Part shown: in pieces, positions 2,180-8,076 of the stretch | How the letters are laid out: each line of letters begins with the position of its first letter | Position numbering within the stretch: position 1 is the first letter of the stretch | Made by a program: the position numbers and the translations under genes | The notes under the pieces: model-generated | What the model saw: only the letters and a program-made list of their open reading frames with translations | Told to the model about the DNA's origin: nothing | Databases searched by the model: none | IMG/VR virus record: IMGVR_UViG_3300015175_000005 | Coordinates: 1-39,923 of that record | Reading direction: 5' to 3' (one strand) | Source: a virus | Length of the DNA stretch: 39,923 nt

Positions 2180-3742
2180 TTATCGTGAACCTGCATCATC
2201 GTCCGATGGAAGATCGACGGAGACCTTCACTTGACCATCGCTTTTTTCGATGGTTGCGGAGGTGACTTTCGTCTCGGATCCGAATGGATTGGTGTTCGTC
2301 GGCAGTGCCACGGTGCCTAGGACGGTTCCGCTTAGACGGATTACCAGGACGTCTGCCGATGGTTTCACAGTCACCCAGACATGCGATTGGTCCTCGAATT
2401 GGTCGAGGATCTCGTCAAGTCCGTCCACCGGCTCGATGCGTACTGTCCTGCCGATGGGGGTGAGCACCTTCTTGTGAGGTTTCGCATTTGAGAACATGAC
2501 GCTCTTCACGTTGGAGAATTGCTTTTTCGGGCTCGGCGTGACGGGTTTCGGCTTCCTTGGCTTCTCTGTCTTCGGAGACTCCATGCCTTGGCGGGTGAGC
2601 TCCATCGGGTCGTGTTCCTCCGGCATCTGCAGGCGTAGCTGCCATATGTGTCGATCCTTGTCCTTCACCCTGTCCGGGACATGGGCGAGCATCACGGCAC
2701 CCTCGGGAGGTACCTGACCACAGTGACGCTCCATCTGGTATTTGCTTATATATCCGATTTCCTCGCCGTCGAGAAACACCCAGTACGTGGGGTATCCTGC
2801 ATACTTGCCCTTCCGTATCCGGTCTTCCATGACATAGACCCAGACCCATGCGTCGTATCCGTATCTTTTCAGGATCCGCTGGTGATCCTCGTCTCCGGAG
2901 ATCTCCACGCCGCACTCTATGGTCTCGATCATGACGCCATCCGGCTTCGCGTTGACCGCGCTTGGCATCTCGCCGCCGAGATAAGCGCTCTTCATGAAGA
3001 AGGAGTCCTTGCGGCGCCTGTCGCGGAGCGCCCGCCGCTTCGATTCGTCCCTCTCGGTTTGCGTGAGCGTCCTCGGGGTGTACATGACCTCCAGCCGGCG
3101 CCAGCATTCGAGAGTCCACCGGGCGTCGGACAGGGCGCGATGCTCCTCGGTGACCTGCATGCCAAGCAGCCGCATGGTCTCCTGCAGGCTTGCCGATGGT
3201 GCGTTTGGGAACTTCGCCATTGCCAACGACATCGTATCGATGCAGGTCGTGTCAAGACAATCGATGCCGAGTCGTGACGCTTCCTTGTTCAACGCGGAAA
3301 TGTCATAGCTGATGTTATGGCCGATCAGTGTGAGGTTCGAGATGGCTGCGAGGAATTCGGGGATTACCTGTTCCGCGTTCGGCTGGGACAGCAAGGACTC
3401 TTCGGTGATTCCGGTCAAAAGCGTTGCCGACGCCGGCAGGTCGCATTCGGGGGAGATAAGTTGCTCCCATTCGCAGGTCGGCACGTTGTTCCTTATCAGG
3501 ATTGCGCCGATATCGATGACACGTGTCCCGGAAGGGGAACTTATCGTTTCCGTGTCGATGACGACGGCATCGGCGATGGCGGCGTTCATTCTGAACTCGG
3601 CGAACGAATCCAGACCGTCATCGCCCGCATGCGATTCTCCGGACAATCCACTTTCCACAGGTACGGACGATTGTCCCTTGTCCTTCTTCGATACGGCGTA
3701 GGCGATGGCCGCAACGGCAACGATGACTATGACCAGCGTCAT
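2180..3742 (-). CDS. Membrane-anchored DEDDh (DnaQ-like) 3'-5' exonuclease with an uncharacterised C-terminal half of about 290 aa
   Basis: N-terminal TM helix MTLVIVIVAVAAIAYAV followed by KKDK. ExoI VVIDTETIS (D63, E65), ExoII LIGHNISYDISAL, ExoIII HRALSDARW. Its start overlaps the stop of the upstream ImmA-like gene (ATGA). Confidence 0.85.
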   Translation of the reverse strand: MTLVIVIVAVAAIAYAVSKKDKGQSSVPVESGLSGESHAGDDGLDSFAEFRMNAAIADAVVIDTETISSPSGTRVIDIGAILIRNNVPTCEWEQLISPECDLPASATLLTGITEESLLSQPNAEQVIPEFLAAISNLTLIGHNISYDISALNKEASRLGIDCLDTTCIDTMSLAMAKFPNAPSASLQETMRLLGMQVTEEHRALSDARWTLECWRRLEVMYTPRTLTQTERDESKRRALRDRRRKDSFFMKSAYLGGEMPSAVNAKPDGVMIETIECGVEISGDEDHQRILKRYGYDAWVWVYVMEDRIRKGKYAGYPTYWVFLDGEEIGYISKYQMERHCGQVPPEGAVMLAHVPDRVKDKDRHIWQLRLQMPEEHDPMELTRQGMESPKTEKPRKPKPVTPSPKKQFSNVKSVMFSNAKPHKKVLTPIGRTVRIEPVDGLDEILDQFEDQSHVWVTVKPSADVLVIRLSGTVLGTVALPTNTNPFGSETKVTSATIEKSDGQVKVSVDLPSDDDAGSR

Positions 3743-4131
3743 TCCACTATCCTTTCTCCATAAGCCGTCGTGACACGAGAAGCCAACAGCGACTTGTAAT
3801 CCTCCACAACCTGCACCGTCACGCCAAGCTCACACGCGATGAGATAAGAGTCCCCGTCGTACAGTCGTTCGGCGGTCGCATATTCGACGGGGCCCACGAG
3901 CCATAACGCGGTCTCCTTGCGGGTGCGCTGTTCCGCTTTTGTTCCGATGATTCCGCATCCAGGGTCATGGTGTCTCGCATGCACGAGCTCATGGCAGAGC
4001 GTGCACATCTTCTGATGGTCAAGCAGTCGATTGTCAACGATGATGAGCCGCAACGTATCACAGTACAGTCCACACAACCCGCGACCCAGGCTGCGTTCCT
4101 CCACGCGCACGTCCATCGACTCCGCCTCCAT
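3739..4131 (-). CDS. ImmA/IrrE-family (COG2856-like) zinc metalloprotease
   Basis: 130-aa ORF with an HExxH motif (CHELVHARHHD) in the usual ImmA context. Its stop overlaps the start of the exonuclease gene. Confidence 0.8.
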   Translation of the reverse strand: MEAESMDVRVEERSLGRGLCGLYCDTLRLIIVDNRLLDHQKMCTLCHELVHARHHDPGCGIIGTKAEQRTRKETALWLVGPVEYATAERLYDGDSYLIACELGVTVQVVEDYKSLLASRVTTAYGERIVE

Positions 4132-4151: not shown

Positions 4152-4310
4152 CTATCGGCCCTCACCGCCGTTCATCTCGATTTCCTTATTCGGATCCCTG
4201 TTGGCGGCCACGTCATAGTCCTCGGGGTGCGCGGCGATACGGTCGATGAGATCATCGGTGATCTGGGATTCGCGCTCGCGGGCCTCGTAGACGCGGGCGG
4301 CTTTTAAGGT
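4152..4310 (-). pseudogene. 5'-truncated ORF remnant (no usable start codon) upstream of the ImmA-like gene
   Basis: Open minus-strand frame ...KAARVYEARERESQITDDLIDRIAAHPEDYDVAANRDPNKEIEMNGGEGR*, with its stop at 4152-4154. There is no ATG/GTG/TTG upstream of the GC/AT junction near 4300. The coding-like GC-rich part ends exactly at that junction. Confidence 0.35.
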
Positions 4311-4311
4311 A

Positions 4312-4347
4312 GAGTCCCGACATTCATTGAGCTGTACATCGGGACTC
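4312..4347 (-). terminator. Stem-loop immediately downstream of the nuclease gene
   Basis: GAGTCCCGA (4312-4320) and TCGGGACTC (4339-4347) form a 9-bp perfect stem with an 18-nt loop, with no strong U-tract. Possible attenuator or processing site. Confidence 0.4.
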
Positions 4348-4369
4348 GAACTATTTTCAAATGATGCTG

Positions 4370-5461
4370 TTATAGAAGGCGTCGCACCTCTTCGCGAATC
4401 CGCTCGGAATATGCGTAGATGCCATTAAGCGTATCGATGGGCATGCGCTCGCAGTTCTTGTTCTCGCCGAAAACACCGAGATATTTCTGCTTGGTGTTGA
4501 AGTAGAGGCGAGCAATCGGTTTTCGATTGTTGTCATCGAGGAAGATGGCGCAGTATTTCTTCGCGTCTCTCATGGTCACCCGTTCCGGATCCACATCGCT
4601 GCATGCGATGGCTTTGATGATTCGGTAACCTGCGATTTCCTCCTCGGTGGTGACGATTCCATCGTCCTCGTTGTCATCGGATTCGTTCTCGACGTTTGCT
4701 TCCTCGTCTGCGTAGTCCGGTTCGGCTGTGCCGGCCTTGATGTCATCGGCTCCGAGGGCTGTCTTGAGTCGGTCGTTGACCTGGTCGGAGAGGAATTGTT
4801 TAAGCGCCTTGCCGACCAATGGCCTGAATTTTTCCATGACGGAAGCATAGAAGGAACCATCATACACATGGCTGGCGAGCAGTTTTACAAATTCATCGGA
4901 CGGGCTCTTGAATTCCTCTCCAATGGCTCTCTTGAGTGCGCCCACGTATTTGAGCTCTTCGGCACTGCTGGCGATGGAATCAAGGTCGAATGCCGGCTTG
5001 GTCAGCTTCTGCAACGCCGGGATTATCGTCGGGTCGATATCCAATAGATCCAGCACTAGGAACGGCTTCGAATCCATGCGGTTCGGCTCATCGATGTCCA
5101 TGTAGAAATTCCATACCTGCCCGTTGGTCAGAACGCCGATGCGCGCGTTCGTGACGGCGAAGTAGCGGTACAGTTGACTTGCGTTCTCCAAGCTGAGCGG
5201 TACGCCGATCTTCTTGCATTCGATAAGAATCTGCACTTGATCGTCATGCACGAGCGCGTAATCGACTTTCTCGCCTTTTTTGACTCCAACGTCGGCGGTG
5301 AATTCCGGCACGACCTCGGTTGGATTGAATACGTCATAACCGAGTACTTGGCCGATGAACGGCATGATGAACGCGTTCTTCGTGGCTTCCTCTGTTTCGA
5401 TGCCCTCTTTGAGGTCGCGTACCTTCGCGGCGACTTGGTTAAGGCTCTCCTCGAACTCCAT
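4370..5461 (-). CDS. HsdR-N-terminal-type PD-(D/E)xK nuclease-fold protein
   Basis: 363 aa, with an AAGGGAG RBS. The N-terminus EEATKNAFIMPFIGQVLGYD...KVDYALVHDDQVQILIECKK gives a D-x13-E-x-K motif as in HSDR_N-type domains. There is an acidic linker and a C-terminal domain (TTEEEIAGYRIIKAI...). Only 15 nt downstream of the repressor stop. Low GC. Confidence 0.8.
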   Translation of the reverse strand: MEFEESLNQVAAKVRDLKEGIETEEATKNAFIMPFIGQVLGYDVFNPTEVVPEFTADVGVKKGEKVDYALVHDDQVQILIECKKIGVPLSLENASQLYRYFAVTNARIGVLTNGQVWNFYMDIDEPNRMDSKPFLVLDLLDIDPTIIPALQKLTKPAFDLDSIASSAEELKYVGALKRAIGEEFKSPSDEFVKLLASHVYDGSFYASVMEKFRPLVGKALKQFLSDQVNDRLKTALGADDIKAGTAEPDYADEEANVENESDDNEDDGIVTTEEEIAGYRIIKAIACSDVDPERVTMRDAKKYCAIFLDDNNRKPIARLYFNTKQKYLGVFGENKNCERMPIDTLNGIYAYSERIREEVRRLL

Positions 5462-5476
5462 TGTTGTTCTCCCTTC

Positions 5477-5824
5477 TTATTTGGTTTTGATGGATTCTTC
5501 GATTTTGATGCGGTCGGCCCACTTGTCGATGTCGACGTCCTCGTGCGATGCCTCGAAATCGCCTATGATATCCGGGTCCTTGCTGAGTCCATCCGCGTCG
5601 GCGATGATCTGCGACAGCGGCATCTTCAAGGCGTCCGCGATCCGGTGCAGCTGCTCATAGTCGGCAACGGTGTTCAAATCAAATATCTTGCGTAGTGTGC
5701 TATATGGCACATTTGATTTCTCGGCTAATGCTGGGCCTTTAATTTCTCTTGTTGCCATCGCCCGTTTGATTGCTATCGATAATGCCTTTGATTCGATAGT
5801 CGGGATTTTCTTTCCTGTTGCCAT
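5477..5824 (-). CDS. CI-like XRE-family HTH repressor (no S24 peptidase domain)
   Basis: 115 aa with HTH ALAEKSNVPYSTLRKIF. Divergent from a Cro-like gene across an 82-bp AT-rich region. Confidence 0.85.
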   Translation of the reverse strand: MATGKKIPTIESKALSIAIKRAMATREIKGPALAEKSNVPYSTLRKIFDLNTVADYEQLHRIADALKMPLSQIIADADGLSKDPDIIGDFEASHEDVDIDKWADRIKIEESIKTK

Positions 5825-5880
5825 AGTTAGAACTTTAGACCCAATTGGGATATAGATAACTCATATGGGACACGCCGAAG

Positions 5881-5908
5881 TTGACATAGGTCATATATAA
5901 CATAATAT
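5881..5908 (+). promoter_or_regulatory. Putative rightward early promoter (PR-like), possibly giving a leaderless cro transcript
   Basis: TTGACA (5881-5886), 16-nt spacer, TAATAT (5903-5908). The -10 overlaps ATG 5907, and a second in-frame ATG lies at 5916. Flanked by TCATATGGGA (5861), TCATATATAA (5891) and TCTATATGGGA (5911) operator-like repeats. Confidence 0.5.
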
Positions 5909-6152
5909 GTTCTATATGGGAACAAATAAGCTCGATTCACAATATCTCGGAAAAGCGATGAAGTCTGCAATAAAGCATGCTGGGCTCACGCAGGATGAAG
6001 CCGGCATCAAGGCCGGCATTCCACGCAACAGTCTCAACCGCAAACTCAACGGCGGAACATTCAACTTCGACGAGCTTACCCGCATCAGCCAAGTCGCCGG
6101 ACGCAAGCTCTCCGACATCATCAAAGACGCCGAAGCGCTCGCCGACGCATGA
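5907..6152 (+). CDS. Cro-like XRE-family HTH regulator
   Basis: 81 aa (78 aa if started at ATG 5916) with HTH GLTQDEAGIKAGIPRNSLNRKL. Divergent from the repressor. Confidence 0.8.
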   Translation: MFYMGTNKLDSQYLGKAMKSAIKHAGLTQDEAGIKAGIPRNSLNRKLNGGTFNFDELTRISQVAGRKLSDIIKDAEALADA

Positions 6153-6174
6153 ATCGAAAGGAGAATCCGAAATA

Positions 6175-6474
6175 ATGACTACCAAGAAAACGATGATTAC
6201 CGAAATCGATCTTTATGAGTTGACGGACAAACAGTCTCAAGCGCTCGTCGAACTGCTCGGGGAGGATCCACTGGAGATGGGCGCTCTCGATGTGCAACCG
6301 ATTCACGTGGTGTATTCGCCAGGACAAGATCTCACTGTGGTCAGGTACATGAAAATGCGGCAGATCAAAGGCAATCAACTCGGCCATATCCTCGGCATCA
6401 CGACCGGTGGTACGGAGGGACCGGTTTCATCACGAAGAAACGATGGGATAGATCGTCGGGAAGAGCCCAGGTGA
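6175..6474 (+). CDS. Hypothetical early protein
   Basis: ATG 6175 preceded by AAAGGAGAA. This is the internal start of the 5977..6474 ORF. The last 77 nt overlap the convergent 6398..6934 gene. Confidence 0.55.
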   Translation: MTTKKTMITEIDLYELTDKQSQALVELLGEDPLEMGALDVQPIHVVYSPGQDLTVVRYMKMRQIKGNQLGHILGITTGGTEGPVSSRRNDGIDRREEPR

Positions 6475-6934
6475 TGCGTACGTCATCGTTGGTGCTGACT
6501 TCCAGACCTCGTTCGAGGAACAGGAAGCTTGATTCGGAGCCGCGCGAGATGTCGCCGAGTTCGTACTCGTTGCCATTCGAAAGCTCGACCCTCACATCCT
6601 TGGCGTCGAACGGATTGTTGTTCGCGACGGAATGTCTGAGGTTCTGCACCTGGCGAATCCCCCATTCCGGAACGGACGCCTCATCTTCCTGGATGGTCGC
6701 TTGGCGTTGCAGGGCGTCAGCCTGCGACTCAAGGGCACGCACCTGATCGCGAAGCGTTGAAACCGTGGCATTCGACGCTTCGAGCTGTTCTCGCAACAGT
6801 TCGATGTCTTCCTCACGGTCCTTGTTCCGTTCTTTCGAACTCTTGTGTTCGACGACCCATCCAACGACCGTCACGACCAGCGTGAGAACGAATGCGGCGA
6901 ATTCGATGCCGTGCTGTGAAAACCAATCAGTCAT
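6398..6934 (-). CDS. Membrane-anchored coiled-coil protein (leftward moron; possible superinfection-exclusion type)
   Basis: ATG at 6934 (MTDWFSQHG...) is preferred over the TTG at 6976. TM helix IEFAAFVLTLVVTVVGWVV, coiled coil LREQLEASNATVSTLRDQVRALESQADALQRQ, and a small C-terminal domain. Confidence 0.65.
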   Translation of the reverse strand: MTDWFSQHGIEFAAFVLTLVVTVVGWVVEHKSSKERNKDREEDIELLREQLEASNATVSTLRDQVRALESQADALQRQATIQEDEASVPEWGIRQVQNLRHSVANNNPFDAKDVRVELSNGNEYELGDISRGSESSFLFLERGLEVSTNDDVRITWALPDDLSHRFFVMKPVPPYHRS

Positions 6935-6958
6935 GAAAACGATTCTAAGGAGAATCCA

Positions 6959-7756
6959 ATGAACAACGAAATCCAACGGTTCGATTTCAGGGGCGCATCA
7001 TTGCGCACCTTGGCCGATGAGGCGGGGGAGCCTTGGTTCGTCGCCAAGGACGTATGCGACATCCTCGAACTGAACAACATCACAGAAGCTCTTCGCCCTC
7101 TTGATGACGATGAGAAGACCAACTTCAGAAATTCTGAAGTTGCTCAGAGTGGTGGTCGTGCGCCTCTCATCATCTCTGAGCCAGGCCTGTACAAGCTCAT
7201 CATGCGCTCGCGGAAGCCGGAGGCCAAGGAATTCCAACGTTGGGTGACTCATGAGGTGCTTCCCCAGATTCGCAAAACCGGCGGCTACATCCCCACCACA
7301 GACGCGGATGATGACATGACCATCCTCGCGAAGGCCGTGATGATCGGCCAGCGCACCATGGAAGCGCAGAAGCAGAAGATCGCCGAACAGCAGACGCGCA
7401 TCGTGGAACTGGAGCCGAAAGCGCGGTTCGCGGACGCCGTGGCCGCGTCCGACGGCACGTGCCTGGTCGGCGAGTTGGCGAAGATGCTCCGGCAGAACGG
7501 GATGGACATCGGCCAGAACCGGCTGTTCCGTCTTCTTCAGGCTGACGGGTATCTCGGCAAGTCCGGCTCGAATCGCAACGTGCCGACACAGCGTGCGATG
7601 GACCTCGGCCTGTTCCGCATCAAGGAGACCACCGTCACCCATGCGGACGGGCACACCACGGTCAGCCGCACTCCGAAGGTCACGGGCAAGGGGCAGCGCT
7701 ATTTCATCGACCGGCACTGGGGTCGCGCTCAGCCGTCGTTGGAAGCGGGTGCGTGA
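6959..7756 (+). CDS. Phage antirepressor (BRO-N plus KilAC/ANT domains)
   Basis: TAAGGAGAA RBS. The N-terminus FDFRGASLRTLADEAGEPWFVAKDVCDILEL is a BRO-N pattern. The C-terminal half (ARFADAVAASDGTCLVGELAKML...) is KilAC-like. Confidence 0.9.
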   Translation: MNNEIQRFDFRGASLRTLADEAGEPWFVAKDVCDILELNNITEALRPLDDDEKTNFRNSEVAQSGGRAPLIISEPGLYKLIMRSRKPEAKEFQRWVTHEVLPQIRKTGGYIPTTDADDDMTILAKAVMIGQRTMEAQKQKIAEQQTRIVELEPKARFADAVAASDGTCLVGELAKMLRQNGMDIGQNRLFRLLQADGYLGKSGSNRNVPTQRAMDLGLFRIKETTVTHADGHTTVSRTPKVTGKGQRYFIDRHWGRAQPSLEAGA

Positions 7757-8076
7757 TGTCAGTCGATGACTCTTTTGTGCCGTGCCGTATCGACAAGCCG
7801 AATCCGTTTGAAGTGCTGTTCGCACTGATTTACATGGGTGTCGGAGTGTTCTGTCTGATTGCGGGTCTCCGGCGGATGGAACGCTGGGAGATTCTTTTCG
7901 GATTCGCGATGTTGATGGTTGCATCGCAGGTATCCAACAGGTTTCTCGCGCGCAAGCGACTCTACGAGGACTGCTTGGTGTTCTACAAGCCGTCGGAAGT
8001 CACCCAGGAAGTTGAAGGAAAGATGATCCGGACGCGACAAGCTGACGGGCACCCTCGGAAAGAAGCGCTGAAATGA
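7756..8076 (+). CDS. Small membrane protein, hypothetical
   Basis: ATG overlaps the antirepressor stop (TGATG). Two hydrophobic helices. The 3' 77 nt overlap the convergent 8000..8677 gene. Confidence 0.55.
   Translation: MSVDDSFVPCRIDKPNPFEVLFALIYMGVGVFCLIAGLRRMERWEILFGFAMLMVASQVSNRFLARKRLYEDCLVFYKPSEVTQEVEGKMIRTRQADGHPRKEALK

Follow-up and report, generated by a model that had tools for sequence, protein, structure and literature searches.

Genes that exclude other phages are known from repressor operons and lysogeny modules, examples being lambda rexAB, Ltp of Streptococcus thermophilus TP-J34 and the prophage-mediated defence genes of mycobacteriophages. Among nucleases, the residue set D...ExK...QxxxY typifies the nuclease domains of HsdR (EcoR124I) and of the RecB family. 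Here we describe a nuclease-fold gene of 363 codons (4370..5461, minus strand), a member of the PHROG 4225 family, that stands directly behind a phage repressor gene in IMGVR_UViG_3300015175_000005. This is a complete IMG/VR virus record of 39,923 bp with direct terminal repeats, from a temperate, Bifidobacterium-type phage; its whole length was analysed and is called the window below. We infer that the gene would be co-transcribed with the repressor, would encode an active nuclease and would serve defence: a self-sufficient enzyme, expressed in lysogens from the immunity transcript, that cuts incoming DNA. The chances that this reading is right seem to us evenly balanced.

The nuclease-fold protein and its C-terminal domain

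We found that residues 23-128 of the protein match Pfam HSDR_N (PF04313; E 8.7e-11, 42.5 bits with a cut-off of 25.1 bits) and that HSDR_N_2 matches as well (E 3e-8, 34.2 bits with a cut-off of 25 bits). Both scores bear out the PD-(D/E)xK fold that had been proposed in an earlier reading of the DNA letters, the sequence-only reading. They are the only Pfam matches of the protein, with no hit to Mrr_cat, GmrSD, Rex or Ltp families; no NCBIfam model matched, and when the complete protein was run against PDB sequences nothing came up. Phrog_4225, annotated as 'endonuclease', aligns over practically the full length (residues 1-361 of 363, positions 2-353 of 357 in the profile; E 9.2e-123, 410.8 bits). 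The motif KVDYALVHDDQVQILIECKK contains D67-x13-E81-x-K83, the D-x13-E-x-K signature already pointed out by that reading, and in an alignment of 36 homologues (48-94% identity, collinear over the whole length) E24, E25, D67, E81, K83, Q96 and Y100 are invariant. Judged by these sequence features, the protein is a putative stand-alone HsdR/RecB-type PD-(D/E)xK nuclease fold with predicted nuclease activity.

Compared with four close relatives, the gene has a dN/dS of 0.053-0.060 at a dS of 0.55-0.63 and is thus under strong purifying selection where present. A decaying pseudogene was ruled out by this ratio (~0.055) together with the intact reading frame. The family is large: a search in a 5.8-billion-protein set was saturated, and all of the 8,000 clusters (90% identity) that were scored are homologous to the nuclease, so that at least 8,000 such clusters exist. 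Relatives are encoded in 279 IMG/VR contigs and in at least 572 stretches of species-representative genomes, and members of phrog_4225 include proteins of Corynebacterium phage Juicebox (gp33), Streptococcus phages IPP25 and Javan316, Enterococcus phage EG-TP1, Fusobacterium phage FNU_1P, Porphyromonas phages and others. Taken by itself, the protein of the window is an ordinary new member of a large catalogued family. One Bifidobacteriaceae species-representative genome (G121, C1:983342-984427) contains the gene in a version that is 94% identical, probably within a prophage of the same lineage whose host is cultivable or was assembled.

The AlphaFold2 model of the protein has a mean predicted local distance difference test (pLDDT) score of 82.7 and consists of four parts, a layout that, like the overall length, is common to all aligned homologues. 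The N-terminal nuclease domain (residues 1-140; 5042..5461, minus strand) carries the HSDR_N match and is modelled with a pLDDT of ~78-96. It is followed by a helical middle region (residues 144-235; 4757..5032, minus strand) with helices at 144-151, 160-185, 189-196 and 206-235, for which Pfam gave no match even at E 10. The third part is a disordered acidic linker (residues 237-268; 4658..4753, minus strand) with a pLDDT below 50 and a net charge of -13; across the 36 homologues the charge ranges from -2 to -13 (median -10), while the linker sequence itself is unconserved. When the nuclease model was compared with the PDB by Foldseek, the top match was the HsdR fragment 3h1t, followed by the restriction-endonuclease-like structures 9y1l and 3ijm, all at weak E-values of 0.03-0.05 and with TM-scores of at most 0.47; the top list, which extends to E 0.13, also holds Cas4 and the type IIG enzyme BpuSI. 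With E-values as weak as these, it is chiefly the sequence profile that carries the fold assignment.

The fourth part is a C-terminal alpha-beta5-alpha domain (residues 270-363; 4373..4654, minus strand), delimited by conservation and by the model, in which its compact fold spans residues 273-362. Modelled alone, it reached a pLDDT of 92.2 and a predicted TM-score of 0.85. Its invariant residues in the 36 homologues are R298, D299, Y303, D309, N311, N312, R313, R318 and N322, which form the pattern R-D...Y...D-x-N-N-R...R...N, and its conservation equals that of the active site. Pfam gave no match even at E 10, PDB sequence profiles gave none either, and Foldseek found nothing at E <= 0.001 in PDB or BFVD; the domain is thus undescribed in Pfam or the PDB. 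Frataxin-like alpha-beta sandwiches were considered as homologues and rejected, with best TM-scores of ~0.45 and a probability of at most 0.15.

A profile of the C-terminal domain retrieved 1,902 representative proteins (50% clusters). In seven of ten longer proteins that were scanned the domain follows HSDR_N, so it appears to belong with this nuclease and not to be a module that combines freely. Rare additional domains among the ten were TerD (two proteins), a SeqA-C-like domain (two) and DUF4236 (one). The SeqA-C-like matches (E 2.5e-5 and 6e-4; the variants are among P0178, P0249, P0217, P0233 and P0214) lie just below the Pfam cut-off. SeqA-C is a reader of hemimethylated GATC, and this weak hint would fit a sensing of DNA methylation state. 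We suggest that the C-terminal domain may provide recognition of a target or trigger and that the acidic linker might restrain the nuclease. If so, the domain would represent a new way to aim or gate a restriction-type nuclease.

The cargo cassette and the immunity region

The repressor gene in front of the nuclease gene (5477..5824, minus strand) encodes a helix-turn-helix (HTH) protein of 115 amino acids and of ImmR/Xre type, as judged by the list of open reading frames (ORFs), Pfam and PHROGs. It matches phrog_4583 ('transcriptional repressor', E 2e-7) and, just below the cut-off, HTH_26 (E 4.8e-4, 20.8 bits). The repressor had been called CI-like, a name that holds for its position and fails for its architecture, as profile searches detected no S24 autocleavage domain. 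Its TAA stop (5479-5477) and the ATG of the nuclease gene at 5461 are separated by a 15-nt intergenic spacer (5462..5476, minus strand), in which the ribosome-binding site (RBS) AAGGGAG occupies 5469-5475, 7 nt ahead of the ATG. ORF coordinates, gap and RBS agree with what the sequence-only reading had stated, and so does the low GC content of the two genes, which amounts to 52.2%; the record as a whole has 61.8% and the backbone at 10.4-33 kb has 64.1%. The block of repressor and nuclease genes falls within the lowest 4% of equal-sized segments, and the GC minimum of the record begins at 4776.

We compared the window with the DNA of relatives in 80 viral contigs (numbered with an L below). 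This comparison delimits a mobile cargo cassette of 1,175 bp (4302..5476, minus strand) that consists of RBS, ORF, hairpin and TACCTTAAAA, with the 15-nt spacer as its 5' end. The contigs L008, L021, L025, L026, L028, L031 and L034 share with the window only the segment from ~4291/4300 to 5486/5491; this common block runs from AAGAAGGGAG via the RBS, the stop codon and the hairpin up to TACCTTAAAAGCC, and the sequences diverge outside it. In L008/L021-type relatives the cassette stands behind an M78 ImmA gene, whereas in the window it stands behind the HTH repressor. The hairpin (4312..4347, minus strand), recognised by folding and from the relatives, begins 22 nt past the stop codon and has a 12-bp stem without a U-run. 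Its region has a folding energy of -25.7 kcal/mol (z -2.8) and is kept alongside the gene in relatives. A consensus terminator scan did not call this hairpin; it may act as a factor-independent terminator or stabilise the 3' end.

L174 is a near-identical phage: its identity with the window amounts to 96-97% over 5477-8000 and to 94% over 4188-4301, and 4302-5476 is missing from it. L174 is an empty site at the exact cassette borders. In place of the cassette it has ~260 nt and the beginning of an HTH gene that is intact there (in-frame ATG at L174:3606, listed ORF 3383-3994). The C-terminus encoded by this gene is matched by a headless frame in the window (4152..4301, minus strand), which is what remains of a second HTH gene at its 3' end. 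A 130-amino-acid HTH ORF with the same C-terminus is found in L021 (4526-4918). Because the remnant is the 3' end of an L174-type HTH gene, truncated by the cassette, the arrival of the cassette, or an exchange, removed the head of this gene; the phage of the window has accordingly lost one of two tandem Xre-type HTH regulators. This loss raises the question of which repressor the ImmA protease of the window acts on.

Two further contigs are natural loss variants of the cargo. In L177 (IMGVR_UViG_3300015182_000020; 3364-4121) the nuclease gene breaks off behind codon 36, with an integrase ~650 nt further on; ImmA, the exonuclease and a DUF2335 gene are absent along with the nuclease. In L199/L035 (4365) the frame breaks at residue 335 of the nuclease. 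The empty site of L174 and these loss variants indicate that the nuclease gene is optional cargo. The sequence-only reading of the gene as a moron is supported: it is horizontally acquired cargo. The cassette borders, together with presence and absence among near-identical phages, define the exact functional unit. With a near-identical cassette-less phage and close relatives that carry the cassette elsewhere, the window adds a natural experiment.

Since the cassette was inserted right after the repressor stop, in lysogens the nuclease gene most likely shares a transcript with the repressor. The promoter scan found no promoter-like site belonging to the cassette itself, which holds only RBS, ORF and 3' hairpin, and the 15-nt gap is too short for a terminator; the gene would thus depend on the repressor transcript. 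In our model, the promoter-less cassette would be read from this transcript in the lysogen. A weak promoter-like site (TCGACA-16-CAAAAT, 5502-5529, minus strand, 9/12) was observed within the 3' end of the repressor gene and could supply the nuclease gene with some repressor-independent transcription. Such promoter-like sites are no more frequent than expected by chance (2 found, 3.0 expected in shuffled sequence). In the search with the repressor, the repressor allele was present in 26 viral contigs, 22 of which have the nuclease gene directly behind it; one more, L177, retains the truncated gene of 36 codons.

Upstream of the repressor, an AT-rich switch region with 35% GC (0.354; 5825..5906), delimited by GC content and promoter scan, separates the repressor gene from a divergent cro-like HTH gene (5907..6152, plus strand; Xre-like-HTH E 1.6e-6, HTH_3). 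A rightward promoter-like site for the latter was found at 5881-5908 (plus strand, TTGACA-16-TAATAT, 10/12); the simple scan called no leftward promoter in the switch region. On the other side, outside the cassette, the window encodes an ImmA-like M78 metalloprotease (3739..4131, minus strand; Peptidase_M78 E 2.5e-5, phrog_87 E 1.6e-12) and a DEDDh (RNase_T) exonuclease of 520 amino acids (2180..3742, minus strand) that was assigned by profile matches and has a long C-terminal extension. A shorter DEDDh exonuclease of ~260 amino acids, apparently membrane-anchored and convergent to the cassette, was seen in L021 (7279-8058, minus strand) and L025 (7279-8064, minus strand), so that the 520-amino-acid enzyme belongs with a family of shorter cousins found in this neighbourhood.

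This setting invites the idea that the enzyme acts on phage or host DNA for the sake of the prophage itself, in induction, excision or the control of lysogeny and perhaps alongside ImmA and the exonuclease, and that competitors are not its target. The gene lies inside the immunity region beside both, some relatives likewise carry a DEDDh exonuclease nearby (the one at 7279-8058 of L021, for instance), and the insertion destroyed the second HTH gene and so changed the regulatory module. The cassette is nevertheless optional, being absent from the near-identical L174 and lost together with ImmA and exonuclease in L177; it is found behind different genes and ahead of very different ones, and in cellular genomes the gene occurs alone in unrelated contexts. 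Moreover, only 12 of 151 Bifidobacteriaceae species genomes have a match to it. A core life-cycle function would not be expected to be so dispensable and portable, and we consider such a role unlikely. The sequence-only reading had gone further in this direction and suggested a DNA-sensing partnership with the downstream protease and exonuclease; this found no support, the cassette moving independently of both. Among the 51 non-redundant downstream neighbours surveyed in viral contigs, RNase_T and Peptidase_M78 occur twice each, and among 136 flanking proteins in cellular genomes RNase_T occurs twice and Peptidase_M78 is outside the 25 families listed. That ImmA or the DEDDh exonuclease is an obligate partner of the nuclease was ruled out on the basis of cassette mobility and these neighbour statistics.

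The same borders could be read as the footprint of a selfish, free-standing homing-type endonuclease that cuts cassette-less immunity regions and is copied in on repair, with no benefit to its carrier. A compact, intergenic unit with sharp borders and no promoter of its own would look like this, as would a presence/absence polymorphism among phages that are 96-97% identical, with L174 as a clean empty site, the differing intergenic positions in close relatives and the deletion of the 5' part of a neighbouring gene on arrival. However, the flanks of the site after the HTH gene and the site after the M78 gene are unshared, which sits poorly with homology-driven homing to one target, and thousands of copies lie in unrelated chromosomal contexts across phyla. 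The strongly conserved extra C-terminal domain and strong purifying selection over a dS of ~0.6 are more typical of a gene that benefits the cell or the phage. Families of homing endonucleases are not known to include the HSDR_N type. We regard homing as rather improbable.

Placement in other phages and in cellular genomes

The sequence-only reading had called for a survey of repressor adjacency. Repressors and ImmA proteases make up at least 30 of the 40 non-redundant same-strand neighbours that lie upstream of the gene in viral contigs: 21 match HTH_3, 12 have Peptidase_S24 as well and 9 match Peptidase_M78. The gaps to the upstream neighbour measure 5-173 nt, and most are below 65 nt. In Juicebox, the order is repressor gp34, endonuclease gp33 and metalloprotease gp32; in FNU_1P, CI is followed by the nuclease gene and an integrase. 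IPP25 has a 384-nt hypothetical gene (with a HEIGH motif in its product) between repressor and nuclease gene, again followed by an integrase, and EG-TP1 has a DNA-binding protein, a metalloprotease and the endonuclease in this order, with an integrase further along. A metagenomic prophage reproduces the arrangement of the window with cro, a divergent repressor, a 15-nt gap and the nuclease gene. The order repressor-gene or repressor-ImmA-gene thus recurs in phages of Actinomycetota, Bacillota and Fusobacteriota, whose temperate phages use the same spot in the immunity operon; the Porphyromonas phage record that was examined differs.

The slot behind the nuclease gene is heterogeneous in viral relatives (L004-L083) and contains Abi_2, GmrSD_N, HEPN and an EC042_2821-like restriction-endonuclease-like domain; it is a cargo hotspot in these relatives. 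DUF3644, DUF3800 and P63C were also seen in this slot. From the position behind repressors and the neighbouring cargo, we infer a role in defence or exclusion. The nuclease would cut incoming foreign DNA, for example that of superinfecting phages, and would thereby protect the lysogen and so the prophage, with cutting proceeding without a methylase or translocase.

In cellular genomes, the gene is found in a different setting. We surveyed 136 flanking proteins from 75 loci of Actinomycetota and Pseudomonas, where ORF calling was crude (longest ORFs plus a filter on GC3) and may have missed small neighbours. The 136 proteins match 132 different Pfam families, none of which recurs more than three times, and a conserved partner in cellular genomes was thereby ruled out. 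This distribution allows for a factor in DNA metabolism, either beneficial to the host or neutral, which prophages would carry only as cargo; it might be a structure-specific nuclease of repair or recombination, or a protein that binds DNA. The gene is widespread in Actinomycetota and Pseudomonas chromosomes without defence-island neighbours, it is rarely fused to TerD, a stress-response domain, or to SeqA-C-like domains, and it has no partner for self-protection. On the other hand, unrelated temperate phages repeatedly have it tightly placed within their repressor operon, the classic slot of exclusion and defence genes, Abi_2, GmrSD and HEPN genes are among the neighbouring cargo, and the patchy distribution speaks against a housekeeping role. 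We consider a function in DNA metabolism quite improbable.

Several findings weigh against a defensive nuclease expressed from the repressor transcript. One main weakness is self-protection, as a constitutive nuclease without a methylase would have to spare host and prophage DNA in some other way. None of the system-specific defence models in PADLOC-DB v2.0.0 matches the protein; its sole match there, REase_MTase_IIG (E 1.3e-4, residues 27-132), is weak and covers the nuclease domain shared with type IIG enzymes. At the 75 cellular loci, no enrichment of defence genes is visible among the immediate neighbours. The nuclease gene is convergent to the repressor in one Bifidobacterium prophage, and in Porphyromonas (Bacteroidota) phages it lies among structural genes, beside HicAB; on account of these exceptions, coupling to the repressor is frequent and not obligatory. 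A literature search found no functional study of the PHROG 4225 family and no experimental report of nuclease activity or phage resistance for any member. The gene is not mentioned in a paper on the pneumococcal lysogeny module (PMC12637031). Campylobacter jejuni CAMSA2038 carries DDV75_03095, annotated as HsdR N-terminal domain-containing, in a phage-resistant strain, and the gene is absent from the sensitive comparator (PMC8713573), a hint that is correlative only; this protein is of another source and may lie outside the family.

Extending the proposal to the whole family, PHROG 4225 would be a widespread single-protein anti-phage system, made of an HsdR-type nuclease, a new C-terminal recognition domain and an autoinhibitory linker, and would travel as a promoter-less cassette on repressor transcripts across at least four phyla, with neither methylase nor motor. 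We put forward this wider claim tentatively, as somewhat less probable than its opposite. If members of the family restrict phages, they would rank with the most common defences that prophages bring to gut bifidobacteria and to other bacteria, under a misleading family name and without a matching system model in PADLOC v2.

Comparison with known systems

Within PHROG 4225, the protein of the window is structurally ordinary, with the same length and layout as the other members. The NCBI name of the family suggests a type I system, and it is a misnomer, as no such system is present. Six-frame searches of the whole record found no DNA methyltransferase (PF01555, PF00145, PF02384, PF02086), no HsdS (PF01420) and no ResIII motor (PF04851), in line with the earlier observation that the window lacks a methylase, specificity or helicase partner, and Hsd genes are absent from the 25 commonest families among the cellular flanking proteins. 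An HsdR subunit of type I restriction-modification was accordingly rejected as a candidate, for want of a superfamily 2 translocase domain in the protein and of HsdM and HsdS beside it.

The protein shares the HSDR_N profile with the endonuclease domain of HsdR (EcoR124I 2w00; Vibrio 3h1t) and with the type IIG enzyme BpuSI (3s1s). It has the set of D-x13-ExK plus QxxxY, and their structures are among its best fold matches, which are weak. In contrast to HsdR, it lacks a translocase and has instead the helical region, the acidic linker and the undescribed C-terminal domain. Single-gene or stand-alone nuclease defence systems, among which DefenseFinder may list an entry FS_HsdR_like, and type IV, modification-dependent restriction enzymes (Mrr, GmrSD) are similar in that the nuclease is stand-alone, has no cognate methylase and is borne on a mobile element; in some nuclease-carrying relatives, GmrSD_N and Abi_2 genes fill the adjacent cargo slot. 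With genes of the rexAB-type slot, the nuclease gene shares its place directly downstream of the repressor, its orientation, its optional presence among relatives and, presumably, the logic of its expression. It differs from Rex and Ltp, whose effectors are membrane or ion-channel proteins, in that its own predicted effector is a nuclease.

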